Origin: a virus
Lineage: Duplodnaviria; Caudoviricetes
Virus record (IMG/VR): IMGVR_UViG_3300032241_001240
Span: 1 to 62,864 of that record
Direction: 5' to 3' (one strand)
DNA: 62,864 bases
In this document: piece by piece, positions 2,458 through 52,871 of the stretch
Position numbering within the stretch: the stretch's first letter is position 1
Layout: each line of letters begins with the position of its first letter
Position numbers and translations under genes: made by a program
The notes under the pieces: model-generated
Seen by the model: the letters and a program-made list of their open reading frames with translations, nothing else
Database searches by the model: none
What the model was told of the DNA's origin: nothing

Positions 2458-3144
2458 TCAAATCAGATTGTAATATTCTGCTACTCGTCTCCACCAACGA
2501 TTAGTATATTCTTCAAATTCTTCTCCTCGTACTATCCATTGTTGCGGATCTAAATCTTTAGAACACATAAGGATTACTCCTTGTTTGATGTCGGTTCCGT
2601 AAATTACATTATGCGATAATGCATAAGCTACCAATTGTGCCTTGTAATCCTCTACCCGTTCATCTGTTTTTGGACGATTAGTTTGTTTGAAATCAACAAT
2701 GCTTGGTATCCCTTGATACACACCTAGTAAATCTGTGGTACCTGCATACAGTTCTGGATAATATAGGTTTACTTCTAATCCCCATATTTCGTCTAAAAAT
2801 GGTTTAAGATAATTTTCTAGAATGACATTAGCCATTTTAGAGCTTTGTTTATGATAAAAATTGGTACCTGGTGTTGGATTTTCGCCATTTAGATATCTTT
2901 CTAAAAACGAATGCATAAGTGTACCTCTAAACGCAGCCTCTTTTGTAATTTCTGCCGCTTTCTTATCTCCTACACTACGTCTCCATGCTTCGAGAGCTTT
3001 TTTTGACTCTTCTGATTTTGTTTTATCCAAGATAGTCGTAACAGAAGCGAGCCTATTTCCGTTTGGATCAACATACTTTCTGCCATCCTGACCGCCGTCT
3101 TCGCGTGTTAATGGTTGATAGTTATATTTGTTCGTTATTATCAC
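2458..3144 (-). CDS. PD-(D/E)XK exonuclease (phage exonuclease/Cas4-like fold)
   Basis: SVTTIL, RGTLMH, E..LY...YAGTTD, IVDFKQT, QLVAYA motifs. Confidence 0.85.
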   Translation of the reverse strand: MIITNKYNYQPLTREDGGQDGRKYVDPNGNRLASVTTILDKTKSEESKKALEAWRRSVGDKKAAEITKEAAFRGTLMHSFLERYLNGENPTPGTNFYHKQSSKMANVILENYLKPFLDEIWGLEVNLYYPELYAGTTDLLGVYQGIPSIVDFKQTNRPKTDERVEDYKAQLVAYALSHNVIYGTDIKQGVILMCSKDLDPQQWIVRGEEFEEYTNRWWRRVAEYYNLI

Positions 3145-4754: not shown

Positions 4755-7700
4755 TTAGGCCTTTATTTTATTGATAATTGCTTGATCAAATGTTTCTGGT
4801 TCGATCATACGTACATTAGAAATCTTACTACCGTGTAGCTCTAACCAATAAGCACGAGTGTCTGCACTTTCGAACATTTTTTTACTTTTACGACCGACGG
4901 CTGTGTTATAATGTACTCCGTAAGGTGTTGAATTTTTAACAGCTTCTAATTTTCGAGCTTTATTAAGAGCGTTGATATTTTGTATCATGCCTATTACACC
5001 TTCTTGCATGATTTGTCTCACAACACTCTTTTGTTCAGCAATCTTTTTGTTAGCGAGTATCATCTGTTGGCGAATTGCTTCTCCTTCTAGTCCATAACCA
5101 ACATTTAGCGGATCAGTTGCTAGACCTTCTGATACCATCTGTTTGAACGAAATTTTATGAGTTTTCATTTCCGAAGTTAGCTTTTCTAGGTGCAATTTAG
5201 TTTCTGCTAATGCTGCTAATGCTTGCTCATAGACTTCATGTTTCGGGCCAAATTGTTTCCATGCTGTAGCATATAGAACCCGTTCCCAGTTCTTGCCATA
5301 TCTCTTCTTGAAATCTTCCTTTCGATCATTGATAAATTCTTCAGCTTTTTTTCCAGGAGGTGCAACTTCAGTAACCTTAGACCCAGACTGCTTGCGCAAG
5401 TAAGCTGGGACATCTTCTTTATCAATGGCCTGATCAGGAGACATCTTTGTTATACGTTTTTCACCAGGTCGCATAGGCACTGAATTTTTAGCCGCTATCA
5501 TCGACGGAGTATCTGGTGATATTCGTGTTAAAACAGGCTTAGATTTTTTTGAAAAAATACCTTCAACAACAGGATGATCGCTATTAATCTTGGTGATTGA
5601 ATTCCATTCTTTGTCGGTGCGACTCATAACCTTTTTTTGATTAGCTATATTCTTCTTATAACCCGGCCAACCTTCTGACATCATCATAGCACCGCATTCA
5701 TTGCAACGCATCTGGCCATCCTTATCTTCCATATAAGTACCTGTACCACATTCTGTGCAAGTCATTGCGCCTTCTTTAATTTTGCCCCAGTGATCTTTTT
5801 GTTTAGCACGTATAGCAAACTCAATCTGTTTAACCTCTTTTTGTTCAGCGGCTGTGCGAGATTTCTTCTTCATTAACTTGTCTTTTTTAGCTTTTAATTC
5901 GGCAATTGTAAAGTTGTCCCACTTACCTTTGTCCTTCTTAGCTGTATGCATTTTTGTATCCCAAGCTTCTTCTAGCTCTGGCTTTTTAGCACGACCAAGA
6001 GCAGGTTCTTCAGATGCTGGTTCTTCAGCAGTTAAATCGCCCTCTGGCGGAGTACCCGCCGGAGCAGCCTGTTCAATATCAGTGGTTTCTGCTGGTACTC
6101 CCCCGCCTTGCAAGGTAGTTACAGCAGAATCTATTGTATCTTTAGTTTGTGTTGTTGTATCTAGCAATTGATCTAGTGCTGCTTTGACGGTTTCATTGAA
6201 CCCAGATGCAGATTCTGGCCCAAATTGAGTTCGCATGCTATCAACTAACGGCATAAGATCATTAACACTTAATTTAGCAACGTCTTCTGCCATATCTTGA
6301 ACTTTTCCGGATAGAGCTTTAGCATTTAGAATTAATTGTGCCTTGGCTAAATCTTCATTGTTAGGATCTTCATCTTCTAGTAATTGTGATTCTGAAACAG
6401 ATTTGCGCGTAGCACGACGTGCTTCATCAAAATGGTCATCCATTGCATGTTCTTCAAATTGAACATAATCCATATAATGTTTGCTACTGCTAATACATTC
6501 GCTTGCAGTTGTCAGCTTCATTGCTACCCACCCTTCTAATTTGTCTCCGGGTTTGATCATGTTAAACAACTTTGTACTGTATTCCATGATTAACATTAGA
6601 TTTTCGCGCGCAATGCTACCACTTGTTTCACCGAGTTCCATATCACTACCCATATCTTCTGGTAACTGTTGAGGCTCGAATGTTTTATAATAATCTAAAT
6701 AATGAAAGATTTTGTCTAAAATGTTTGCAGATTTTGTTAAACAACCGGCTATCCATGGTGGCACCTCACCGTTAGGATCAACTTGTTTAATCATGCTCAT
6801 TGCATATTTGGCATTGCGATATAACTCGCTACGAGCCATACTGGCTTGATATTCATAATGATGTGCTTGACTAAATGTAGCCTGCCCCGGCATTGATGAG
6901 GTATCAACGGTTCCTCTTGATAATGTATCGCTTTCTGCTAATACACCTTCTTTGTTGTAGCTCTTATTCTTTGTTTTAGCAATAGCTTCTGCGCGACTCA
7001 TACCGCTCCTCATCATTCTAGCAATCATTACGTCTGCAAAATCATGATCGCCGTCATGATCTTGATCAAGTGTGTCTTCATGAACATTATCCATGCCTGG
7101 ATTAGCAACATCATTTGTTTCAGCTGTCATTATTTCGAGGTCTTCATCTAAATCTTGATCTAGTTGGCCAGCAGCTTTCATTTTCAATTGTGCCAATTTA
7201 ACAATTTTTTTCTCATTATCTGTTAGTCTGCTTGGTCCAAATGCTGTACCCATATGTGATAGTTTATCACCAACTCTGCTAATTGCATTGAGACTGGTTA
7301 ATTCTTTTGCATCAGTGCCATGCGTTTTAGTTGCGTAATCAACCATAGCACGACCGAGGGAAACTATTTTGTTCAACTGATCAGGCGATAAATTTTCATT
7401 TATACGAGTTTCTTTAGCTGGCACTTTTGTACGTAAACCATATCCTGGTACACCTAGCTTACCACGTGCTAGATCTAGACCTCGTTCTCTCTTTTGCATT
7501 CTTTTTTCTGAATCAGGGTCAACTGTTGTGCTAGTATAATCACTTGAATGCTTTTTATCGGCGTTGTCGTAAGTTTTCCAATAATCATCGTGTGCTGCTT
7601 TATCATATCTTTTAGCGAGATCTTTTGAAATTTCATTCAAATCATCGCGATTTGCTGGTGCTGCACTGAAATTAAATCCGCCTTTTCCTTTATTTTTAGC

Positions 7701-15319: not shown

Positions 15320-16732
15320 TTAACGTCTAACCAGTGATGTTAACGCACTGAGATCTTTGATACTTTTATTCTGATCTAATACTTTTGTTTCTGTTTCAGC
15401 TTTCTTTGCTGCTGCGGTATTCTTCCTGCGTAAATCTGCAAATACATCAGCGGTAGTACCCACATTCGATATCATAGATTGTCCGTCGCCATCTCCATCA
15501 AATATACGCAATGTGTTTGGGTCAAATCCTAGATTAACTTTGCTACCAACACCACTCGACGAGCGTGTTTTCAAAAACTGTACCTGATATTGACCACGTT
15601 CCTTCATCGCAGCACTGGCAAAAATAGATATAACGTTGTCAGCTGTTTGAATTTTTGAAATCCCTCCTGAAATATGACTGTGATCATGTTCTTGCTCTTG
15701 AACAGCAGACCTGTTTAATTGTGCGGCGGTCATACCTAATAACTGCCGATCAACCATCAAACCTCGCAATTCTTCTGTGACAAATTTGTCTTTAACAAAT
15801 AAGTTGCTAGGATCAATTTTCTTGTTATTTGGGAATAACAAATCTAAATAATCAACAACCAATGCATCTGGCCGTTTACCTGTTTCAATTTCATATGTTT
15901 TGAGATATGCTTTGATATCGTTACATGTACTACCTTGCGGCATCTGTTTAATATGCAAACTACCACTTTTATGACTTGCTTGTTTAACACGTATTTCAAC
16001 TTCGTCAATTTTGCGAAAAATTTCTTTAGTCGATACCTCACTGATCATACTGTCCATACGCATTGAACATAATTCTTCGCTTAATTCTAGAGATATGTAG
16101 ATTACGTTCAAACCCTGTTTGATAAAATTTATTGCTAAATTTTGCAAAAACACACTTTTACCTGTGCCGCTTGCGCCGCACCATATAGTAATTTCGCCTC
16201 GATTAACTCCGCCGTATAATTTATCATCTACATCTTTCCAGCCTGTGCTAATTTGACCGTTGTTATTTTTGATTCTCATTAATCTAGCACGAGGGTCTTC
16301 AAAATAATTGGTACCAATATCGCTTTGTAGGCTAATCAGAATAGCGTCTCTAACTAATTTTTCTACCTCACTATAATTACCTTTTTCAATTAAATCTACG
16401 GCATTTAGAACGGCATCTGCTAAAGCACGATTTTTACAAAATTCTTCTATTTCATCTAAAAACGCATCTTGATGCTGTATCGTGATATTTTCAATTCTAG
16501 AGAAATTTATTCCGGTCTCTGCTGTTACCTGCTCAAATTTTGGCAAGACCCTGTATTTCTCAGCATGAGACATGATGTATCTCACAGCAGGTCTAAATTT
16601 ATTAATGAAGTATTTTGCATTGATAATATTCTGACATTGTGCAAAAATTTCTTCGCTGCTCAACAGCACGTCTATCAAAAGTTTTTGCTTATCTTCGGTA
16701 TATTCTTTAATTTCGGCCGGCTCTTTTGTCAT
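15320..16732 (-). CDS. DnaB-like replicative helicase (T4 gp41-like)
   Basis: Walker A GASGTGKS, ISLELSE, VVDYLDL, AAQLNRS, SKIQTAD, LKTRSS. Confidence 0.95.
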   Translation of the reverse strand: MTKEPAEIKEYTEDKQKLLIDVLLSSEEIFAQCQNIINAKYFINKFRPAVRYIMSHAEKYRVLPKFEQVTAETGINFSRIENITIQHQDAFLDEIEEFCKNRALADAVLNAVDLIEKGNYSEVEKLVRDAILISLQSDIGTNYFEDPRARLMRIKNNNGQISTGWKDVDDKLYGGVNRGEITIWCGASGTGKSVFLQNLAINFIKQGLNVIYISLELSEELCSMRMDSMISEVSTKEIFRKIDEVEIRVKQASHKSGSLHIKQMPQGSTCNDIKAYLKTYEIETGKRPDALVVDYLDLLFPNNKKIDPSNLFVKDKFVTEELRGLMVDRQLLGMTAAQLNRSAVQEQEHDHSHISGGISKIQTADNVISIFASAAMKERGQYQVQFLKTRSSSGVGSKVNLGFDPNTLRIFDGDGDGQSMISNVGTTADVFADLRRKNTAAAKKAETETKVLDQNKSIKDLSALTSLVRR

Positions 16733-16733
16733 C

Positions 16734-17756
16734 TTATCCTCTAATCATCTGTCGTTTCATACCAATTTGCAATTTACTATCAGTTTTTGATTGTATAATA
16801 CTATATAAGGTATATAGTTTTCCGTATTTTTTGCTAGCATCTGCTGCATCTTTAATACCTTCTTCCCATTCTGGAAAACTTACTGACCATCCTTGATCTA
16901 ATGCTACATCAATTAACTCTTGATTCTTTAATTGTCTATCTGGTACAATTATTTTTTCTTGTTCGCTAGAATTTAGCCATTCGATTTGCTGTTTGTTCAT
17001 TTTACTACCTAACGTAGCAACACCATCTACTGCAATAGCATCGAACGGTCCTTCTGATACTAGAACATACTTTCTAAATTTATTGGTTAATATTTTATTG
17101 TTGAACAGATAGCCCGTCGGTAGATCACTGTTGAAATATCTAGGTATATTTTTTGGAGGTACACCTGCATATCGACCAGTCCATCCTATTATTTTATTTT
17201 GATGATAAAATGGTATAATAATTCTGCAATTGAGATCCCAACGGTGGTTAGGTGTCCAGTGATACTGGTATCCTTCTGCAACGGCTCTACCTCTGGTTGT
17301 TAAATATTCTACACAAGCAGCAAATTCATCAGGAATTTCGTCTGCTTGCAACCATTCGTCAAATGAGTTGGTATATCTAGGTAGTTCTACTTCTGAAAAA
17401 TTCTCGGCTCGAAACCAGTTGCTGTTATCAATATTTTCTAATTCGCCGTTAAGTTTTTTGCTGAGTATCTCTAGTTTAGCTTCCTGAATTCGCGTGCGAG
17501 GTATTCCTAGATAAGTTAACCACAGCTCAAAATTGTTGGTTATATCGCCTCCTCGATAACCTGTTTTGAATCCACAATTATAACAATTAACAATTATAGC
17601 ACCATCTGCTGTTATCAATAAATTTCCACGAGAGCGTGTATCGTGATTATGGCCTCGATGATGACAGCAAACCGAATCGAATATCCACCAACCTTTAGGA
17701 TTTTGACGACGCTTAGACGGCAAATATTCTTGAACCAATTGATGTAATAACAGCAT
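16734..17756 (-). CDS. DNA primase (T4 gp61-like; Zn finger plus TOPRIM)
   Basis: CCHH...CYNCG, RIIIPF, GWTGR, VSEGPFDA, KDAADA; adjacent to the helicase. Confidence 0.85.
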   Translation of the reverse strand: MLLLHQLVQEYLPSKRRQNPKGWWIFDSVCCHHRGHNHDTRSRGNLLITADGAIIVNCYNCGFKTGYRGGDITNNFELWLTYLGIPRTRIQEAKLEILSKKLNGELENIDNSNWFRAENFSEVELPRYTNSFDEWLQADEIPDEFAACVEYLTTRGRAVAEGYQYHWTPNHRWDLNCRIIIPFYHQNKIIGWTGRYAGVPPKNIPRYFNSDLPTGYLFNNKILTNKFRKYVLVSEGPFDAIAVDGVATLGSKMNKQQIEWLNSSEQEKIIVPDRQLKNQELIDVALDQGWSVSFPEWEEGIKDAADASKKYGKLYTLYSIIQSKTDSKLQIGMKRQMIRG

Positions 17757-20013: not shown

Positions 20014-20625
20014 TTAATCAACGCTGTCAATGTTATTTGTGGCTTGTTCGACAATTAGATTGGCATGTACCTTTACCAACATTGCATAACTTGTTGCATG
20101 GCTTTTGTGAAAGCTATACGATCCGTCAGATGAATCTAACCATATCTCACTTGCAATAGAATCAAATCCGTTTAGTTTGCATTTTTCTACCAAATGTCTT
20201 TTACCTGGGCGAATAAGGGCTAATATCATTGCTACATCTTGAATATTCTTTGGGCGCAAACTTGCAACCATGTCAGCATGTTTACCAAGATGTATCAGTT
20301 TCTCTGTAAATTCTGTATAGGAAAGTAGATTCCAGTCAAACTCTCTAGACATTAGATCTAATAAATGTTGTTCGTTTTTGACCATTTCGTACACATAAAC
20401 ATTGAGTAAATCTATTTTATACAACCCTTGCTGTTCTGCTGTTTCATAATGTAAACTAGCTAATCCTGTAATAGGATCTGTGGGAACAGTATGAAAATAA
20501 ACACCTGTGTTATGTTTTGTAATGGTATTATTTCGTATAATCGCCGCTGGTATATGATATAAAAATTTCAATGCTCGATTGCGATCTGCAAAATCTATAT
20601 CAACATCGCCTGCTAATTTAGGCAT
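20014..20625 (-). CDS. Miniature DnaE (Pol III alpha)-like catalytic-core protein
   Basis: GDVDIDF, KHNTGVY, YKIDLL, ALIRPG and YSFHKSHATSYA occur in DnaE order in ~203 aa; ATG at 20625 follows GGGGAGA. Confidence 0.8.
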   Translation of the reverse strand: MPKLAGDVDIDFADRNRALKFLYHIPAAIIRNNTITKHNTGVYFHTVPTDPITGLASLHYETAEQQGLYKIDLLNVYVYEMVKNEQHLLDLMSREFDWNLLSYTEFTEKLIHLGKHADMVASLRPKNIQDVAMILALIRPGKRHLVEKCKLNGFDSIASEIWLDSSDGSYSFHKSHATSYAMLVKVHANLIVEQATNNIDSVD

Positions 20626-20852
20626 ATAATATCTCCCCATGTTAGAACAAATTCTGCAGCAGTTTGCTGATTAACATCGATGTAAATTTGCCAAGGATTA
20701 ACTGGAATAAGTTCATATCTGATATTTCTATCTTCTAACCATTTACCTAACGGCGATTGGCTGTTGATAAAAGGTACAGAATATATAGACATTAACGGCT
20801 CGAACTGATAGACAATCCAGTCTTCATCTATTTCGACAAAGAACTTTCTCAT
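20613..20852 (-). CDS. Hypothetical protein
   Basis: Coupled ORF (ATGA overlap). Confidence 0.6.
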   Translation of the reverse strand: MRKFFVEIDEDWIVYQFEPLMSIYSVPFINSQSPLGKWLEDRNIRYELIPVNPWQIYIDVNQQTAAEFVLTWGDIICLN

Positions 20853-21163: not shown

Positions 21164-21850
21164 TTACATCCCATTTTCTCTAAGTGTATTGCGTATAAAT
21201 TCGCAACTGTCTCTGTTTTTATTGAATCGTATTTTCCAAGGCCCCGGCGGTGCATATTTTTTAATCATACTTATTTGTTCGGGTGTGCATCTTTCAAAAA
21301 AATCAACTGCGCTATCAACATTATACAACAGCCACGGTGATATCCTGCCACTGCGTATCCATGCTACTGCTTGATTGGTATTAACCTGTCTAAAAAATTC
21401 TGGCCACGGCTCCCCTGATTGCATGCTCCATTCATTCATTAACATGATATTTCGTTCAAGGGCATCCTCTGCTGATTCTTGTCGTGTTAATTCTCGAACA
21501 TATTGTTCGTAGACAAAATCATGAGTCCATTTGTCAAGAGGCAAATTGTTTTTGATAACATAATCAATAAATTTAGCAGGTTCCACTGCATTAAGATCTC
21601 TCATATGCATGCCAAATTTAACAAATGCAAGATAATATTGGCTATCTATAAAATTTCTATAATTATTTTTAAAATTCGTGTTTTTATTGAATGTGTTTAA
21701 TTCATAAAATCTACTCCAAGCTAGAAATCCAAATCTCACATGAGGATCGTCTCGTTGAAACCATCTTCGCTTTTTTTCACAACTATGATTTACAAGGCTT
21801 GATTCTTTAACAAATGTGCGTTTGCAAAATTCACATTCAAAAGATGTCAT
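21164..21850 (-). CDS. Hypothetical protein with N-terminal C2HC Zn finger
   Basis: CEFCKRTF....LVNHSC; probable start at ATG 21850 overlapping the upstream stop. Confidence 0.75.
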   Translation of the reverse strand: MTSFECEFCKRTFVKESSLVNHSCEKKRRWFQRDDPHVRFGFLAWSRFYELNTFNKNTNFKNNYRNFIDSQYYLAFVKFGMHMRDLNAVEPAKFIDYVIKNNLPLDKWTHDFVYEQYVRELTRQESAEDALERNIMLMNEWSMQSGEPWPEFFRQVNTNQAVAWIRSGRISPWLLYNVDSAVDFFERCTPEQISMIKKYAPPGPWKIRFNKNRDSCEFIRNTLRENGM

Positions 21851-22371
21851 GCACTTTGTTGCTTCTTCCATGTGTCGATTAAATCCTTGACCTCTGCATC
21901 ACTTGCACCACTTCCTTTTACCAAGCTAGTCCAGCTTTCAATATCATAAGATGATTTTAGAATAGATAATTCATCGTCATTTAATTGAGGAAAACGATCT
22001 AACAACCATTGATCAATTTTATTTGATTGTTTGGTATTTTTCGCAGCTAACCAACTACGGTATTGTTTACTCCCTAAACCAGCTAAACACAACAATTTGT
22101 GTTGTAATTCGGGGTGCTTTGTTAAATTCCAAAATCCAAGATTAACAATCTCGTTTGTAGCCATAACCGCATATGCTGCGTTTGGATTTTGAGAATTTAA
22201 CGAACTCATATAACGCATGAGCACAAGTGGTGAGTAACCTTTTTTTTCGTCTTCTGTTAGGTTGTTATAATAATCAAAATTTCGAGTATCTATTGCGTGC
22301 AATGTTTCGAAAAGATCTAACTTTTGCGTTTTTTGTGATTTTTGTGATTTTTGTGATTTTTTTTCGGCCAC
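21847..22371 (-). CDS. Putative clamp-loader small subunit (T4 gp62-like)
   Basis: YSPLVLMRYMS...ATNE...HPELQ...QYRSWL resembles the gp62 pattern; replication context. Confidence 0.5.
   Translation of the reverse strand: MAEKKSQKSQKSQKTQKLDLFETLHAIDTRNFDYYNNLTEDEKKGYSPLVLMRYMSSLNSQNPNAAYAVMATNEIVNLGFWNLTKHPELQHKLLCLAGLGSKQYRSWLAAKNTKQSNKIDQWLLDRFPQLNDDELSILKSSYDIESWTSLVKGSGASDAEVKDLIDTWKKQQSA
22322..22357. repeat. 9-bp tandem repeat (TTTTGTGAT x3 plus one variant) encoding KSQ repeats
   Basis: Seen directly; protein begins MAEKKSQKSQKSQKTQK. Confidence 0.85.
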
Positions 22372-24266: not shown

Positions 24267-25724
24267 TCAATAGACTATCTTTGAAATACTAGACGGATAC
24301 TGTACCTCTGTATAAAATTTACGTCGTTTTAATAAATGCTTATTACTGAATTTGCATTTACTAGCTATATCATATATAGAAACTTCGTTTTTATCATCGG
24401 CTTTTCGTAAGCCTCGACCAATACTTTGTATTACTCGAACAAAACTTTTACCTGGTTCTAGCAATATTAGATTGAATATTCGATTTATTGAGATTCCGGT
24501 ACTTGTGGTACCGTATGTAGCTATCATTATAGCATTGTCAGCGAGATTGATATCTTTATAATGTGCCTTACGTTTGGTACTTTTCATTTTCCCACTGATA
24601 AAGGTAGCATCAGGTATTAATTCTTGTAATATTTGGCCAGTTTCGATACGATCTATTAATACGAGTGTGTTGCCAGTTTTAGAAATTTCTATAATTTTTT
24701 CAGACAACCATTTCATTCGATCTCTATTGGTTACCAGATATTTTAATTCCTCTTGATAATTGTTGTATACTACTGATTCTTGTGTATGTAAAATATTCAC
24801 ATGACACTGAGCTAAATGTCCTTGATCTTGCAATTCTTTTGCAGTGAGTTGGCCAACTAATGGACCAATTGCACTATATAAACTTACTTGATTATATTCT
24901 TCTTCTGGTATTGTACCAGTTAACCCCCAGCGTATAGGTATGTTAGAAAATGTCGTTGTCAATAAACTGTGTAATACATTCATATTTTTTACTGAATGAC
25001 ATTCGTCGCATATCACAGCTACCAAATTGTCTAAAAACACTGTCATTTGTTCGTCGTCAAGCGCATCTTTGTGTTTTTTATCTAACACCATCAAACTTTG
25101 CCATGTACAGATAGTATGCGTTCGATCATATTCTTTACGATCACCGTATAATACACCAACATCTAACCCAATATTTCGATAATCTTCTTCTGTCTGTTGA
25201 ACTAGATTTTTGTTGGGGACTATAAGTATAGTTCTGCCATATCTTTCTGCTACCTTGGCTAGAGTGGCACTTACAATTGTTTTTCCTGAACTGGTAGGAG
25301 CAACACTAATACTCTGTAGATTATTGATACACTCGTTAATTGCTTGAACTTGATAATCTCGCAGAACAATAGGCTCTCCAGCAGCTCGGTGACCTACTGG
25401 CCATACAATATGACTTAGAAAGTTTTCGGTAATTTCGCTGAACTCGAATGTATGAGTAGGTCTCTGATCAACGAGTTCAAGTTCATAACCGTGATCAGTT
25501 AATATTGGAAGAATTTTGTCTAATAAATTTAGATAAGTTCTGCCACCTAATGTACAAAAACTTGTTGTACCGTCCCATCGACCAAGCTTATAAGCAGGAC
25601 TATAACGTGCATGAGGGAGAAAATATTTTACTGCATTTACGCATGCTCGGCGAGTCGGTAAATCTAATCCTTCTAGTTTTACAGATGTCTCATTTTCAAT
25701 AATTATTTGCGCAATTTTAATCAC
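24267..25724 (-). CDS. uvsW: UvsW-like SF2 DNA helicase
   Basis: WDG, LRDYQ, APTSSGKT, DECH, GLTGT, QSIGRGLR. Confidence 0.92.
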   Translation of the reverse strand: MIKIAQIIIENETSVKLEGLDLPTRRACVNAVKYFLPHARYSPAYKLGRWDGTTSFCTLGGRTYLNLLDKILPILTDHGYELELVDQRPTHTFEFSEITENFLSHIVWPVGHRAAGEPIVLRDYQVQAINECINNLQSISVAPTSSGKTIVSATLAKVAERYGRTILIVPNKNLVQQTEEDYRNIGLDVGVLYGDRKEYDRTHTICTWQSLMVLDKKHKDALDDEQMTVFLDNLVAVICDECHSVKNMNVLHSLLTTTFSNIPIRWGLTGTIPEEEYNQVSLYSAIGPLVGQLTAKELQDQGHLAQCHVNILHTQESVVYNNYQEELKYLVTNRDRMKWLSEKIIEISKTGNTLVLIDRIETGQILQELIPDATFISGKMKSTKRKAHYKDINLADNAIMIATYGTTSTGISINRIFNLILLEPGKSFVRVIQSIGRGLRKADDKNEVSIYDIASKCKFSNKHLLKRRKFYTEVQYPSSISKIVY

Positions 25725-26500: not shown

Positions 26501-27025
26501 TCATTCTCCTGTTTCTTCTGAAATATCATGTTCTTCATCTTGTATAGGATTTATCCTACGTTCATCCCATTCATCCATAATCTTATCTAAAAAGTCATTT
26601 GTGATGGAATTACGAAAATATTTGTGTTCTACATTCGACTTGTCAATATACTTGAGTTTATTCCCGTCTTTAACCAAAATACCTTTCTTCTCAAACAACT
26701 CAATCAATCCGCTATAAGGATCCATACCTGTTTCCCAAGGAATTTTGATTTCAACGTTTTCAAATGGCTTGTTATATCTAGTCTTCATAATTTTGCATGC
26801 AGCACGAATACCACGAACATCTGTAACCTTTTTACCATCTTCGTCTTCTTTAAGCTTGCGCTTTTGCATAGCTACAACAATTGATGATGCATAGATGAAT
26901 CCTGAGTTATGGCTGACTATTCCGCTATCTAATAGATAATGATGTGCAACAGGAACTGATATATCATATACTTTCTTAATACCTATATTTTTTTTACTTT
27001 TAATTCTAATTTTTTGTAGTGACAT
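26501..27025 (-). CDS. uvsX: Split-intein C-fragment (40 aa) fused to the RecA/UvsX C-terminal extein
   Basis: MSLQKIRIKSKKNIGIKKVYDISVPVAHHYLLDSGIVSHN|SGFIYASS...KTRYNKPF; the intein ends HN at 26906 with Ser+1. Confidence 0.92.
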   Translation of the reverse strand: MSLQKIRIKSKKNIGIKKVYDISVPVAHHYLLDSGIVSHNSGFIYASSIVVAMQKRKLKEDEDGKKVTDVRGIRAACKIMKTRYNKPFENVEIKIPWETGMDPYSGLIELFEKKGILVKDGNKLKYIDKSNVEHKYFRNSITNDFLDKIMDEWDERRINPIQDEEHDISEETGE

Positions 27026-27995
27026 TTTTGATATACTCCTTTATCATTTTAATTGATTCTAGTTTGTTATCTGATTCCCAAACTACTATAGTATGATACC
27101 CCTTGGTGTTCGACATACACTGCTGCTTATTCTTATCTCTGTTCCATATTTCTTGCGCTGTTAAATTTGTCTGTTTATGTAAGTATTCAGAATTATATTT
27201 TTTTGGATTACAATGCCAATAGTCTCCATAAAACTCAACACAAAGATTATATGCTGGGACAACAAAATCGAAGAAATAATAACAATGTAAATTTGAATCT
27301 AAAATTCCATATTCACCATTTTCATTGCATGCACTATAAATTTTGCAATCAGGAAATAAATTACTCAATTCTAAAAAAAATTTATTTGCTTTTTTAGAAT
27401 TATGTCTATTTTTAAATTTTTTAGACCATAACTTTCGTCCTGCATCGTCTCCGTGATTGTTAATATACCCTTCCAATGTATAATTTATTTTTCTAGATTC
27501 ACATAGAGCATTATATTTCAACGTTCCTTCAGTTTCTCCAAATTTTGATATAAAATATTGCAAAGACATATTATCAGAACGTTGCATAATGTATGATTTA
27601 GCTTCTTCCTCACTCATTCCTCGTTCCATCCAATATTCTTTGCAAAATGGAGATCTACGTTTTCTTTCATCTGTATCATATTTTTCTAATCTCAGTTTAC
27701 TGTTAGCACGTTGTACTCTAGAAACTTGCTCTACAGCACTTTCCATTGTGTAACCTAACTTGACCCAATAATCGATGCTACGTGGACTTCGAGATTTCTG
27801 AAGTTGAGATATTTTTTCTTGAGATTCCTGCAATGATAAGCCTCTTTTGATCCAATATTCAACCGAAGTTTGACCGATTTTTTTAGGCAGTTTTAACTTT
27901 CTGCTGTTTTTGCACAATGGCGAACATACATATTGTATAGTCATTATACTATCTTTTTTTCTTATCATTTTTCCGCATTCAACGCACGGTTTCAT
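27006..27995 (-). mobile_element. Free-standing Vsr-like homing endonuclease gene between the split-intein halves
   Basis: N-terminal CxxC...CxxxC, three YWxxxGxxxxE repeats, C-terminal FDF...VEFYGDYWHCNPK...GYHTIVVWE. Confidence 0.82.
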
Positions 27996-28003
27996 GTGAT
28001 TAA

Positions 28004-28049
28004 CCTCCAGTAATTTGTGTGTTGTAGATATTTAGCAAATTACTGGAGG
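28004..28049 (-). promoter_or_regulatory. RBS-sequestering hairpin with a late promoter in its loop
   Basis: Perfect 14-bp inverted repeat cctccagtaatttg / caaattactggagg. On the minus strand the 3' arm carries the GGAGG SD of the endonuclease, and the 18-nt loop contains TAAATA. Confidence 0.85.
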
Positions 28050-28063
28050 GCAAGGGTTATTAG

Positions 28064-29014
28064 TTACACAACTTGTAATATTTCATCATTTTCAGACAAT
28101 TCTGCTACAGTTTTCCACACCAATTGATTATCAAGCTGTTGCGTTAAAAACTTATGTTCGTTAGTGGCCTGAATTATTTCACCAGTTTCTAATTCAATTT
28201 CAATTACTTCTTTGTCATCAAATGTAAACGTTTCTGAAACATCGATATCACCATCTAATGTAACAACAACATCCCCTTGCTGAATATCTTCAATATTCTT
28301 TGATGAACCGTCTGCCATCCAGATTTTATGCCCGGCTGTTAAACAACCTCCACTAATTTTGTCATCTGGATCAAACATATCTTGACTAGCATAGCTATGA
28401 TTGGTTACTACCATACCAACATCATATTCACCAAACATATTCACACAGTTACGAACTAGGGCTGTAAGTGCCTTTGGTTTACGACCCATATCACCCTTTA
28501 AATCGCCTGCTTCGAATTGATTCACATCAGTTGGGGTTAATAACATACCGAGACTGTCTAACACAAACAAAATCTTTGGTCGGTCCTCTTCTGGTACGGT
28601 GTCAAACCGCGACTTGTAATCTTTCATAAAGTCACTCATTAATCTAGCTACGTCGTCAATCATAGACATATTAACCTTAAGTAACTTTTCTTCACTGGTA
28701 TCAACACCAAGTGGCTTTAACCAATTTTCGTCAAGTGCATTTTCTGTGTCAATTAATACAACGAAAATACCCTGTTTTTGTGCATTGCGCACCAAATTAC
28801 CCGAACAAATATACGATTTACCGCTGCCTGACTGGCCTGCAAACATAGTAACCTTTCCTAGAGGGATACCGCGTCTAAAGTTACCAGATATACCATAATT
28901 AAGTGCATAGTTGCCGCTATCAATCCAATGCTTTGGATCGTGGAATCCAAGAGAAATACCTGGAATACTTTTTGTTAGGTCACGTCTAAACTTTGAAAGA
29001 TCAAACGGTTTCAT
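28064..29014 (-). CDS. uvsX: RecA/UvsX N-terminal extein fused to split-intein N-fragment (93 aa)
   Basis: Walker A GQSGSGKS, IDTENA, LDSLG, VTNH, then DKISGG|CLTAGHKIWMADG...ATNEHKF (intein blocks A and B; Cys at 28345). Confidence 0.93.
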   Translation of the reverse strand: MKPFDLSKFRRDLTKSIPGISLGFHDPKHWIDSGNYALNYGISGNFRRGIPLGKVTMFAGQSGSGKSYICSGNLVRNAQKQGIFVVLIDTENALDENWLKPLGVDTSEEKLLKVNMSMIDDVARLMSDFMKDYKSRFDTVPEEDRPKILFVLDSLGMLLTPTDVNQFEAGDLKGDMGRKPKALTALVRNCVNMFGEYDVGMVVTNHSYASQDMFDPDDKISGGCLTAGHKIWMADGSSKNIEDIQQGDVVVTLDGDIDVSETFTFDDKEVIEIELETGEIIQATNEHKFLTQQLDNQLVWKTVAELSENDEILQVV

Positions 29015-29070
29015 GTTATTCTCCTGTTAATAAAATGACGATAGATAATGTGAGTTGTATTATTTAAAAA

Positions 29071-50205: not shown

Positions 50206-52116
50206 ATGCAATATTGGTATTCTGCTCAGTTAAGACAATATCGTCTACAATTTATCAGAGCATTTAGCGGTTTTTCTGTCAAGACTGGCCGTGGCGGGCC
50301 AAATAACACCGAAGAACTTTTAAAGGTGCCATGCCGATATGGTGATCCATCTAGAGTAGCTGCATCAATAGTTAGAGGTAATAGCGAAAATAAGGTATTA
50401 ACCGTACCATTCATCACATGCTATATCAGTAGTCTAGTGATGAATGCAAGTCGCAGGCAAGATCCTTATTTTTCTAGATCAGTACAGGTTAATGAACGTT
50501 TATACGACGAACAATTAAACAGATATACAAACGAAATTGGTAATCGTTATCGAGTTGACATGTATATGCCTGTGCCATATGATGTAACCATGCAAGTTGA
50601 CATATGGACAAATAACGAGGATATAAAAGAACAACTTCTCGAACAAATAATGGTATTGTATAATCCAACTATAGATATTCAGACCTCGAATAATCCAATA
50701 GACTGGACCGTATTAACTTATATTGAAATGATGGAAAATATCAATTGGAGCTCTAGAACCATACCAGTTGGTACCGATAATCCTATTGATGTAGCAACAA
50801 TACAATTCAAATTTCCTATATGGATCAATCCTCCAGCTAAGGTTAAAAAACAAGTTCTTATAGAAGAAATTATAACCAACATTGTGCAAGGATATAAGTA
50901 TCCGAATGCTATGGAATGGTCTGAATATGAATTTCTAGCACGAGATATAACAACACCAGATGATGCAATTATACGCATTACAAACGTTGATCCTACTACA
51001 TACGCATTAAGTTTATGCGGGAGCAATGGATCGCCAATAGATTTATTGTCGCAACCAACCGTCACATTCGCTGCTGAATATCCAAAATTATTTGTTGGTA
51101 TGGTGTTTTTATGGAATACTATACAAATAACAATATCACACGATACATTAGCCGGAGCTATATCAGATATAAGAAGCTTTCTAGTAGGGACTCAATTAAA
51201 CTGTGTAATTTATAATAATACCAGTATGCAATTCATCAACACTGATGGAGGAGATAATGTATTTGTTGATATTGTACCAGGGTCTTTGAGCGCATTAGGG
51301 TTAGAGGGAACAACATATCCTGGAGGTAATCTTGCATGGTGGAGATTATTACAATTATACGGGACATTAAAACCTTATAGTCAGTATGGTGTGAATGCTA
51401 GTCAAATAAGACTGAAAACTATTGATGATCTAACCCAAACAAATACTGATCTAGTTGGTTGGATAGAAATTAACCCAACCAATCAAAATATACTTTATTG
51501 GTTTGCTGATCCAGAGAGTTTCCCGTCACAAACATTACCAGCAATAAATGCTATAGTAGATCCAACTGTAAGTGGTCCAAATATCAATTTACCAGCTGCT
51601 AGTATTGGGCAACGATATTTGTTGACTGATAATATACCAATAATTAGCCAGGCTTGGGGTAACATAAGTATCCCAGATTCGACGCCAGTAGCAATACAAC
51701 CTGCAATCTGGCAAGCTGAACAAACTGTTATTCAACTTAATTCTCCAAATGTACACATCAAATCTGGCCAACTTGTTACAAGCGGTAATGTCGGCATTCC
51801 TGATGGTACTGTTGTTTTAAATGTAGAAAATACAAAAATACAAATAATTAACGAACTAACACCGTTGTCTAGCAATTTAACCGTTACTAATAGTAATTTT
51901 GCGCCAGTAAATTTCTATTCTAGAGCAACCGCTAATGATATTATTACATACGATGGGAATAATTGGGTTGTTACTTTTGATTCAATAGCCGAGATCAATA
52001 CAACTCAATATACATTAAATTTAACGTCAAATCGATTGTATGTATGGAAAAATGATTTCTGGTCACCTGTAGTTGATTCTAAATATACTCCCGGATATTG
52101 GACAATATCTCTATGA
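50206..52116 (+). CDS. Tail terminator/sheath stabiliser (gp15-like) with C-terminal extension
   Basis: VPCRYGD, MPVPYD..MQVDIWT.N...K.QLLEQI..LYNP, PIWINPPAKV. Confidence 0.85.
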   Translation: MQYWYSAQLRQYRLQFIRAFSGFSVKTGRGGPNNTEELLKVPCRYGDPSRVAASIVRGNSENKVLTVPFITCYISSLVMNASRRQDPYFSRSVQVNERLYDEQLNRYTNEIGNRYRVDMYMPVPYDVTMQVDIWTNNEDIKEQLLEQIMVLYNPTIDIQTSNNPIDWTVLTYIEMMENINWSSRTIPVGTDNPIDVATIQFKFPIWINPPAKVKKQVLIEEIITNIVQGYKYPNAMEWSEYEFLARDITTPDDAIIRITNVDPTTYALSLCGSNGSPIDLLSQPTVTFAAEYPKLFVGMVFLWNTIQITISHDTLAGAISDIRSFLVGTQLNCVIYNNTSMQFINTDGGDNVFVDIVPGSLSALGLEGTTYPGGNLAWWRLLQLYGTLKPYSQYGVNASQIRLKTIDDLTQTNTDLVGWIEINPTNQNILYWFADPESFPSQTLPAINAIVDPTVSGPNINLPAASIGQRYLLTDNIPIISQAWGNISIPDSTPVAIQPAIWQAEQTVIQLNSPNVHIKSGQLVTSGNVGIPDGTVVLNVENTKIQIINELTPLSSNLTVTNSNFAPVNFYSRATANDIITYDGNNWVVTFDSIAEINTTQYTLNLTSNRLYVWKNDFWSPVVDSKYTPGYWTISL

Positions 52117-52871
52117 TTAAAAATTTATTCGAAATAGAAAAATCAATTGACATAGAAACTTTCAGCAAGATTTTTACGCCAGATATCAAGAGAACCATCG
52201 AAATTATTCGAAAATACGGCTTTGATTTAAGAGTGGTAGGTGGTGCTGTTAGAGATTTTCTACGAGGTGTAATACCAAGAGATGTTGATTTCGCTACAGA
52301 CGCAGAACCAGCAGAATTAATTTTTATTTTTGATCTAGAAGGAATTGAATACGATGCAACAGGTATAGGACATGGGACTATAAAAGCCGTATTTGGTAAT
52401 GATAAAATTGACGTAACGAGTATAACTTATAAGATGCATGTAGTAGGTAATAAAATTAAAATTGCTAGATCAAAAGGTTGGGAATTTGATAGCTTACGGC
52501 GGGATCTCACGATCAATAGTATGAGCGTAGATCTTCATGGTAATTTATATGATTATCAAAATGCACAACTAGATTTAGAACGCGGTTTGGTAAAATATTG
52601 CCCAAACTCGCAAGAAAAAATTGATCAAGATCCTTTGGCAATATTGCGATGGTTTAGAGCCATGACATATTTTGATAACCCCAGATGGTTGAAAAAAGAT
52701 CGAAAAGTTATCGAACGCAATGCTGAAAAAATTGTAGATGTAAAAGATGACAAACGAGCAAAATTCTTGCTTTCCGATATATTGTCATCAAAAAATTCAA
52801 AGCAAATTTTTGAATTGATGTGTGATACTGGTGTTGCACAACCTCTCGATATAACTTGCAACATAAACTAA
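52113..52871 (+). CDS. Second, truncated class II (CCA/PolyA-type) nucleotidyltransferase
   Basis: VVGGAVRD, DVDFATD, RRDLTINSM; templating motif reads QDPLAILR; ATGA overlap with the gp15-like gene. Confidence 0.85.
   Translation: MIKNLFEIEKSIDIETFSKIFTPDIKRTIEIIRKYGFDLRVVGGAVRDFLRGVIPRDVDFATDAEPAELIFIFDLEGIEYDATGIGHGTIKAVFGNDKIDVTSITYKMHVVGNKIKIARSKGWEFDSLRRDLTINSMSVDLHGNLYDYQNAQLDLERGLVKYCPNSQEKIDQDPLAILRWFRAMTYFDNPRWLKKDRKVIERNAEKIVDVKDDKRAKFLLSDILSSKNSKQIFELMCDTGVAQPLDITCNIN

Follow-up and report, generated by a model that had tools for sequence, protein, structure and literature searches.

A probable C-terminal unit of a split minimal DNA polymerase III alpha in an uncultivated, putatively T4-like jumbo phage

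We analyzed a 62,864-nucleotide stretch of DNA, the whole of the IMG/VR virus entry IMGVR_UViG_3300032241_001240 (hereafter "the window"), in which an open reading frame (ORF) on the minus strand at positions 20014–20625 encodes a 203-residue protein with catalytic motifs of the alpha subunit of bacterial DNA polymerase III (Pol III alpha; DnaE in Escherichia coli). With a probability of about 0.8, this ORF is the C-terminal unit (hereafter "C unit") of a minimal Pol III alpha split over two genes in T4-like (group 2.2) jumbo phages. As such, it comprises Mg2+-binding palm strands and trimmed fingers, and corresponds approximately to residues 397–784 of E. coli DnaE. The kind of gene is already published: in their passages on group 2.2 jumbo phages, Iyer, Anantharaman, Krishnan, Burroughs, and Aravind (2021, Viruses 13:63; PMC7824862) describe a split minimal Pol III alpha in phages also encoding a family B polymerase, and the window copy is a further member, from an uncultivated phage. 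Relative to these passages, our map of the split site, natural fusions of 336–375 residues, a model of the complex, and a fixed primase-DnaB gene block may be additional, though some of this may already be contained in that work.

The window is estimated to be ~15% complete, which implies a phage genome of about 400 kb. Its phage gene set includes a gp32-like single-stranded DNA-binding protein, UvsW, UvsX, UvsY, DnaB, a primase, tail sheath, and tail tube, and no family B polymerase was found in this ~15% fragment. A first-pass annotation, made from the letters of the window alone, had described the protein as a miniature DnaE, compacted internally rather than truncated at its ends, and had proposed that it acts as a minimal C-family nucleotidyltransferase, perhaps with neighboring small proteins as subunits.

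A C-family catalytic core in 203 residues

The reading frame is open for 208 codons in the ORF listing (20014–20640, minus strand), and an in-frame ATG at 20640 would yield a protein of 208 residues. The ATG at 20625 appears to be the better start, because a Shine-Dalgarno motif read from the sequence (GGAG, 20633–20636, minus strand) lies 7 nt ahead of it and because the database gene call (P0001, 100% identity) is also 203 residues long. The ORF is intact and well equipped for translation, as the first-pass annotation had stated.

All five Pol III alpha motifs noticed in that annotation were located, in order, within these 203 residues (coordinates on the minus strand): DVDIDF (residues 7–12, 20590–20607), HNTGV (38–42; KHNTGV, 37–42, 20500–20517), KIDLL (70–74, 20404–20418), IRPG (138–141; ALIRPG, 136–141, 20203–20220), and HKSH (173–176, within YSFHKSHATSYA, 170–181, 20083–20118). 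This ordered occurrence is far more than expected by chance. D7 and D9 match the catalytic residues D401 and D403 of E. coli DnaE, and D11 matches D405; the translation of E. coli K-12 dnaE reads ...FERFLNPERVSMPDFDVDF, bearing all three. KHNTGV corresponds to the E. coli segment H511-A-G-G-V, K70 to K553, and D72 to the third catalytic aspartate, D555. In the fingers, ALIRPG corresponds to ALFRPG (636–641), with R139-P140 on R639-P640, and K174-S175-H176 corresponds to K758-S759-H760. Catalytic residues D401, D403, and D555 and the steric gate H760 are named as such in the relevant text of PMC8485763.

The matching motifs of E. coli DnaE begin at positions 401, 511, 553, 638, and 757, and the 360 residues from D401 to H760 are reduced to 170 between D7 and H176 of the window protein. 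This internal compaction, correctly recognized in the first-pass annotation, is uneven: spacing falls from 110 to 31 residues between DxD and HxxG, from 42 to 32 between HxxG and KxD, from 86 to 69 between KxD and RP, and from 119 to 35 between RP and KSH. The segment lost between DxD and HxxG is one we take to be the thumb, and the shortening between RP and KSH takes out the distal fingers.

A single-sequence phmmer search against the PDB gave only chance-level matches, with DnaE at E-values of 0.49–1.1, and a profile search was therefore needed. The underlying alignment (A1) contained the window protein and 90 of 150 listed representatives, 183–222 residues long; the other 60 representatives, shorter fragments or longer proteins including two fusions, were left out. 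Searching the PDB with the A1 profile returned nine distinct sequences at E ≤ 1, all nine of them Pol III alpha (from E. coli, Thermus, and Mycobacterium; best E 1.3e-5). The alignment placed KIDLL on VKFDF (K553, D555), ALIRPG on ALFRPG, and YSFKKSH on YGFNKSH, and hhalign concurred.

Structure prediction, which the first-pass annotation had suggested as a check against the DnaE palm, pointed the same way. An AlphaFold2 model built from A1 reached a predicted local distance difference test (pLDDT) score of 95.8 and a predicted template modeling score of 0.89, and shows a palm and fingers fold. Foldseek ranks 1–12 were all Pol III alpha (probability 0.92–1.00, TMq 0.44–0.57). By VIA-align, the closest match was Taq Pol III alpha 457–869 (Z 10.7, root-mean-square deviation 4.2 Å, 200 residues), alongside E. 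coli DnaE 396/397–779/784 (Z 9.8–10.1) and PolC 967–1296 (Z 9.9); rows 1–14 were all C-family polymerases (Z 6.6–10.7), and the next, unrelated chain scored Z 3.0. Residues 1–203 of the C unit all align to DnaE, and the structural alignment stops at approximately residue 784 of the 1160 in E. coli. Of the features that strictly define the C family (DnaE/PolC), the three-aspartate Pol-beta-like palm is present, and a same-chain GRGS palm segment, PHP, thumb, full fingers, and beta-binding and OB C-terminal domains are absent from the window protein. The PHP domain (PF02811) was likewise absent from all four records searched (the window, the phages Atu_ph07 and Phosso, and G001, a related IMG/VR genome of 452.8 kb that is 100% complete and has a C unit sharing 67% identity with the window's), with the positive control found in 14/14 genomes. 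The absence of PHP, OB, and clamp-binding regions reported at first pass is upheld by these results.

Catalytic positions are nearly invariant across the 91 sequences of A1. Among the acidic residues, D72 is conserved in all 91, D7 and D9 in 90 each, and D11 in 89; K70, R139, and P140 are conserved in 91/91, G41 in 90/91, H38 and H176 in 89/91, and a Lys or Arg occupies position 174 in 88/91. We also estimated ratios of non-synonymous to synonymous substitution rates (dN/dS) by the Nei-Gojobori method for 16 coding sequences (the window and 15 IMG/VR loci). Among the 40 lowest-dN of the 120 pairs, dN/dS was 0.037 in the sole unsaturated pair (dS 0.18) and 0.03–0.19 wherever dS was finite, including 0.061 and 0.121 for the window against its relatives L005 and L006, with dS near saturation in both. 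On these ratios, the gene family is under purifying selection.

The C unit matches PHROG 11778 ("DNA polymerase", 197 positions) end to end (E 1.6e-57, protein residues 11–200 on profile positions 7–195). Large protein collections hold 904 homologues of near-equal length (the 120 listed span 194–216 residues), and 394 representatives at the 50% level. By tblastn, the C unit was found in 96 phage records, 95 of them with at least 80% coverage and every one below 60% identity; among the 40 matches listed, these are mostly jumbo phages of 284–490 kb. Carriers include PA5oct-like phages, Asteriusvirus (PBECO4-like), GAP32, CBB, Atu_ph07, and Phosso, and the window protein is 36–46% identical to those of isolates. 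In several phages, the two units already carry GenBank labels that read "DnaE-like DNA polymerase III alpha" or "DNA polymerase". In Atu_ph07 (NC_042013.1), the RefSeq coding sequence gp074 (locus L001, 5067–5561) starts 66 nt after the onset of the tblastn match at 5001, which corresponds to query residue 12, the first Asp; gp074 as annotated would apparently be without DxDxD, which suggests a mis-called start.

The N-terminal unit in relatives and natural fusions

Alignments of the C unit, by structure and by sequence, begin at DnaE ~396/397, i.e., at the DxD strand, and the preceding palm segment with GRGS (E. coli 361–364) is absent from the window protein. The minimal C-family nucleotidyltransferase of the first-pass annotation is in this respect half right: the protein is a C-family catalytic core, but not a complete enzyme, lacking the N-terminal palm half with GRGS. 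A Pfam search with PF07733 revealed one extra locus in each of the three complete relatives (Atu_ph07, Phosso, and G001), and none in two relatives represented by fragments of 40% and 27% completeness. The ORFs at these loci (hereafter "N units") are 177, 177, and 173 residues long, respectively, and end with ...W/KGVGRGSS...D(F/I)xE(F/W)L(N/E/K). In hhalign, positions 105–179 of the N-unit profile fell on E. coli DnaE 322–396, up to ...FERFLNPER. The N-unit profile stops at DnaE 396 and the C unit picks up from ~397; by alignment, the gene is therefore split between the equivalents of these two residues. Complementary DnaE pieces elsewhere had been named in advance as evidence against a self-contained enzyme, provided they were large; a complementary gene of ~173 codons does exist in relatives, but it is short and was the only further DnaE piece found.

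N and C units lie far apart, 182 kb in Atu_ph07, 224 kb in Phosso, and about 274 kb in G001; tblastn places them 44 and 32 kb apart in PA5oct and phage A4, respectively. The N-unit family comprises 396 homologues, with PF07733 detected in all 120 listed, and tblastn with the phage A4 N unit retrieved 95 phage records, at least one of which comes from a phage that encodes a full-length DnaE. The two units have near-mirrored host genus tallies: Escherichia, Pseudomonas, Klebsiella, Salmonella, Erwinia, Xanthomonas, and Yersinia count 34, 11, 10, 8, 8, 4, and 4 records for the N unit, and 34, 11, 11, 8, 8, 4, and 4 for the C unit. A Pol III alpha subunit, gp316, had been recorded in the Atu_ph07 paper (PMC6102473), and is taken to be the N unit, judged by position. 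A "miniature" enzyme on a fragmentary contig may be half of a split gene.

The surroundings of the N unit are kept in four distant relatives, in which a protein of ~120–153 residues and then a GroES-like co-chaperone gene lie directly downstream (L037 1198–2498, L003 1195–2576, L004 744–2040, and L038 1489–2758). The GroES-like gene was seen beside the N unit in G001, Atu_ph07, Phosso, and phage A4, and the A4 genome has a gene for a clamp-loader subunit next in line. A family B polymerase is present in all three complete relatives. This polymerase also seems, from its reading frames, to be split into two genes in G001 and Atu_ph07: Pfam DNA_pol_B matches two adjacent open frames in G001 (C1:294678–297558, 755 and 351 residues) and likewise two open frames in Atu_ph07 (212336–213688, 418 and 578 residues), where gp276 and gp277 are listed as DNA polymerases (PMC6102473).

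Two of the 150 listed C-unit representatives are natural fusions of both units. In P0140 (375 residues), an N unit at 6–180 (E 2e-21) is followed by a C unit at 190–371, and P0259 (336 residues) has the same build. The junction reads ...EFIKD-(6–10 residues)-D(F/Y)DI(D/E), and is colinear with E. coli ...ERFLNPERVSMPDFDVD. Residues 92–206 of P0140 form one unbroken DnaE-model match across this junction (TIGR00594 302–417, E 7.6e-15; PF07733 E 4.8e-16).

Complex prediction was performed for the N and C pair of G001, with each chain given its own family alignment, in three runs and with three controls. The pair obtained an ipSAE of 0.88 in all three runs, against 0.00 for the best of the three controls, with a partner pLDDT of 89–90 and at least 95% of contacts agreeing between runs. 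The ipSAE mark used is met by 58/80 solved complexes and 2/110 mismatched pairs, a calibration that is only rough for custom alignments. In the model, N-unit residues 136–139, the strand leading into GRGS, contact C-unit residues 12–14 in the DxDxD strand, and the halves are predicted to fit as they do in DnaE; the score does not in itself demonstrate binding. The partner of the C unit is likely this distant N-unit gene product, and not a neighboring small protein as the first-pass annotation had envisaged.

A shared active site and competing explanations

From these observations, we infer heterodimer formation, DNA polymerase activity, and a possible contribution to replication alongside the family B polymerase. 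The C unit would contribute three metal-binding aspartates (D7, D9, and D72), the H38/G41 strand, and trimmed fingers (R139-P140 and K174-S175-H176), the module that in DnaE holds the incoming deoxynucleoside triphosphate (dNTP) and has the sugar-discriminating His. It would not be functional by itself: the GRGS phosphate-binding motif and the rest of the N-terminal half of the Pol-beta-like palm reside on a separate protein of ~173 residues. The two proteins are proposed to dock strand to strand, GRGS against DxDxD, forming a heterodimer in which the palm sheet is completed in trans and a single active site is created. Within this site, GRGS of the N unit together with R139, K174, and H176 of the C unit would hold the dNTP, and D7, D9, and D72 would hold two Mg2+, such that dNTPs could be added to a primer on a template. 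Use of dNTPs rather than ribonucleotides is expected because the steric-gate His is retained, and the enzyme is probably distributive and dependent on phage replisome partners because it has no thumb, clamp-binding, OB, or PHP part.

Several observations weigh against this interpretation. Matches to existing DnaE models are sub-threshold, with 17.5 bits for PF17657 (DNA_pol3_finger; cut-off 22) and 18.7 bits for TIGR00594 (cut-off 434.35). No N unit was found in the window, either with PF07733 or with the Phosso N-unit protein as query, and a degenerate GRGS pattern matched three times versus 2.9 expected by chance; this absence is uninformative because the fragment is only ~15% complete, but the presence of an N unit in the window's own phage is presumed from its relatives. 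The two fusions among 150 representatives sit on short contigs (2.4 and 8.0 kb), and a word-index search for longer forms returned none among 426 candidates, which is weak evidence since the full scan found two. The complex score may mirror likeness to solved single-chain DnaE structures rather than real binding. Finally, a polymerase without thumb or clamp contact meets no established need beside a full family B polymerase, and our literature searches found no biochemical study of the family.

Among other explanations, the sub-threshold model matches would also be expected of a decayed remnant or mis-called fragment of a former full-length phage dnaE. We regard this as extremely improbable given the 904 same-length homologues, a dN/dS of 0.04–0.19, catalytic residues conserved in 89–91 of 91 sequences, a confident and compact model, and the lack of PHP or other DnaE parts in all four records. 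A self-sufficient miniature C-family nucleotidyltransferase, acting alone or with adjacent small proteins as first proposed, would fit an intact, conserved ORF with three acidic residues, finger motifs, and conserved neighbors. It is nonetheless very unlikely, since the protein begins at the DxD strand without any equivalent of DnaE 322–396 and its GRGS motif, all complete relatives examined have a matching N-unit gene, the two units also occur naturally fused, and in the complex model the DxDxD strand is buried by contact with the N unit.

The reconstituted enzyme might alternatively be another kind of Pol-beta-superfamily nucleotidyltransferase, engaged in template-independent tailing, nucleotide-signal synthesis, or nucleotidylation of protein or DNA ends. 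Loss of the thumb and of every DNA- or clamp-holding C-terminal domain would be compatible with such an activity, as would the family B polymerase encoded in all three complete relatives. However, the dNTP-holding finger motifs are kept, including the steric-gate His (H176, 89/91) with its neighboring Ser or Ala, and the gene occupies a set place in the replication block that also encodes primase and DnaB (see below), and we consider this explanation improbable, albeit less so than the previous two. The split minimal Pol III alpha remains our preferred interpretation, within which repair synthesis or non-polymerase nucleotidyl transfer may be alternative roles.

A gene encoding DnaE in two distant pieces is known from cyanobacteria, in which a split intein allows the halves to be rejoined by protein trans-splicing. 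The phage split site lies elsewhere, and there is no room for intein parts, since DnaE-like sequence fills C-unit residues 1–203 and, in the N unit, runs up to its end at the counterpart of DnaE residue 396. Compared with bacterial DnaE and PolC, the phage form has the same Pol-beta-like palm with equivalents of D401, D403, and D555, the same order of HxxG, RPG, and KSH, and a structural Z of about 10, but it consists of about 376 residues in two chains versus 1160 in one for DnaE, without PHP, thumb, distal fingers, HhH, beta-clamp-binding, OB, and tau-binding parts. The closest known counterpart is the system described by Iyer et al., from which we see no essential difference in their passages on it beyond the uncultivated origin of the window copy: both have a standalone ~200-residue C-terminal Mg2+- and template-binding unit (PHROG 11778) and, in relatives of the window, a distant NTP-binding N-unit gene, no other Pol III domains, and a family B polymerase alongside. 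In the same passages, these authors suggest that the split form might work together with the family B enzyme, either in synthesizing one strand or in repair, and they regard the phage version as a model for the ancestral enzyme (PMC7824862). African swine fever virus Pol X offers an analogy only, as a viral Pol-beta-fold polymerase described as cut down to the nucleotidyltransferase fold and fingers (PMC11646218); it differs in being a single-chain family X enzyme with a repair role. A "split DNA polymerase" of chimalliviruses reported in a preprint (PMC13648687) apparently belongs to another family, as "polymerase III", "Pol III", "C-family", and "DnaE" appear nowhere in its text. The PA5oct omics paper does not mention the polymerase.

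If a pair of ~175–200-residue proteins truly rebuilds a working C-family site, it would represent a minimal catalytic core of the bacterial replicase, without PHP, thumb, clamp-binding, or OB parts. T4-like giant phages would then run family B and family C polymerases side by side, which would bear on the origin of Pol III and on the division of labor in two-polymerase replisomes.

The replication block and other genes of the window

The C unit is embedded in a block of genes ordered as follows: UvsW helicase (24267–25724), p124, p364 (plus strand), a 174-residue gp62-like candidate, a 235-residue Zn-finger protein, a ~100-residue coiled-coil protein, the C unit, a 164-residue protein, p125 (plus strand), a virion-protein-like gene, primase, and DnaB. 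We compared this arrangement by tblastn of 13 block proteins on 34 loci (32 from IMG/VR, Atu_ph07, and Phosso), across which gene order and strands were alike. The Zn-finger gene lies upstream of the C unit in 31/34 loci, the other three beginning inside or just before the C unit, and the primase lies downstream in 24/34, with the remaining ten loci stopping within about 1 kb of their last match. Genes for the coiled-coil protein, a 79-residue protein, and the 164-residue protein had no match or a weak match in the more distant loci.

Of the neighbors named at first pass, the primase, helicase, and Zn-finger genes were confirmed, and the gp62-like gene is a lead only. The DnaG-type primase (16734–17756, minus strand, 340 residues) matches phrog_47 (E 4.8e-29), and the DnaB-like replicative helicase (15320–16732, minus strand, 470 residues) matches phrog_19 (E 9.5e-67). 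The conserved upstream Zn-finger protein (21164–21871, minus strand; phrog_11058) has an N-terminal C2H2-like finger whose residues C13, C16, H29, and C31 are invariant in 14/14 sequences; its AlphaFold2 model had a pLDDT of 68.2, Foldseek found no match in the PDB at E ≤ 0.001, and Atlas returned only unnamed phage clusters. The other conserved upstream gene (21847–22371, minus strand; phrog_11758) possibly encodes a gp62-like clamp-loader small subunit, with an Atlas score of 0.93 and PF16790 in 11–13% of the members of the top clusters.

As the linkage of the C unit to primase and DnaB is invariant, primer extension is a reasonable guess, and the gene context points to an involvement in priming or in the extension of primers. 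A functional analogy is provided by Bacillus subtilis DnaE, a C-family enzyme described as adding a short extension to primers made by primase and then passing them to the main replicase (PMC5627055); it is full length and binds the clamp, and a phage hand-off is hypothetical. More speculatively, the split mini Pol III could be a dedicated primer-extension polymerase of a two-polymerase, T4-like replisome, with the C unit inherited together with primase and DnaB, the N unit placed elsewhere (by the GroES-like gene, and near the clamp-loader subunit in phage A4), and active-site assembly regulated. We hold this extended scenario to be possible but doubtful; if true, no C-family polymerase smaller than the 336–375-residue fusions would be known, and these would offer an accessible model for the ancestral core of Pol III.

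Further observations concern other replication and recombination genes of the window and its relatives. The UvsW-like helicase of G001 (L014 3771–6320) is 849 residues long versus 485 in the window, and an insert ending ...VVTHN|T, lacking from the window copy, looks like an intein. In the window, the UvsX region (26501–29026, minus strand) consists of two ORFs in the same frame. The first (28064–29026) encodes a RecA-like N-extein up to ...KISGG, then a Cys and a Hint/intein N-terminal part (Pfam Intein_splicing, 226–313); the second (26501–27025) begins with ~40 residues of an intein C-terminal part ending ...GIVSHN|SGF, followed by the UvsX C-extein (phrog_97, 344–474). Between the two lies a 329-residue ORF in another frame (27006–27995, phrog_22677). 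Judged from these ORFs, the UvsX gene appears to be fractured and to contain a split intein, an arrangement that presumably resembles published layouts combining a split intein with a free-standing endonuclease.

The window also encodes two paralogous proteins with a tRNA-nucleotidyltransferase/poly(A)-polymerase head domain (1264–2457 and 52098–52871, both on the plus strand; PF01743 E 4e-30 and 2e-22, respectively), of which only the 1264–2457 copy carries the RNA-binding domain PF12627. At 2458–3144 (minus strand), a 228-residue exonuclease matches phrog_298 (E 1.9e-49) and no Pfam family; papers on related phages (including PMC6102473) mention a standalone Pol III epsilon-like exonuclease.

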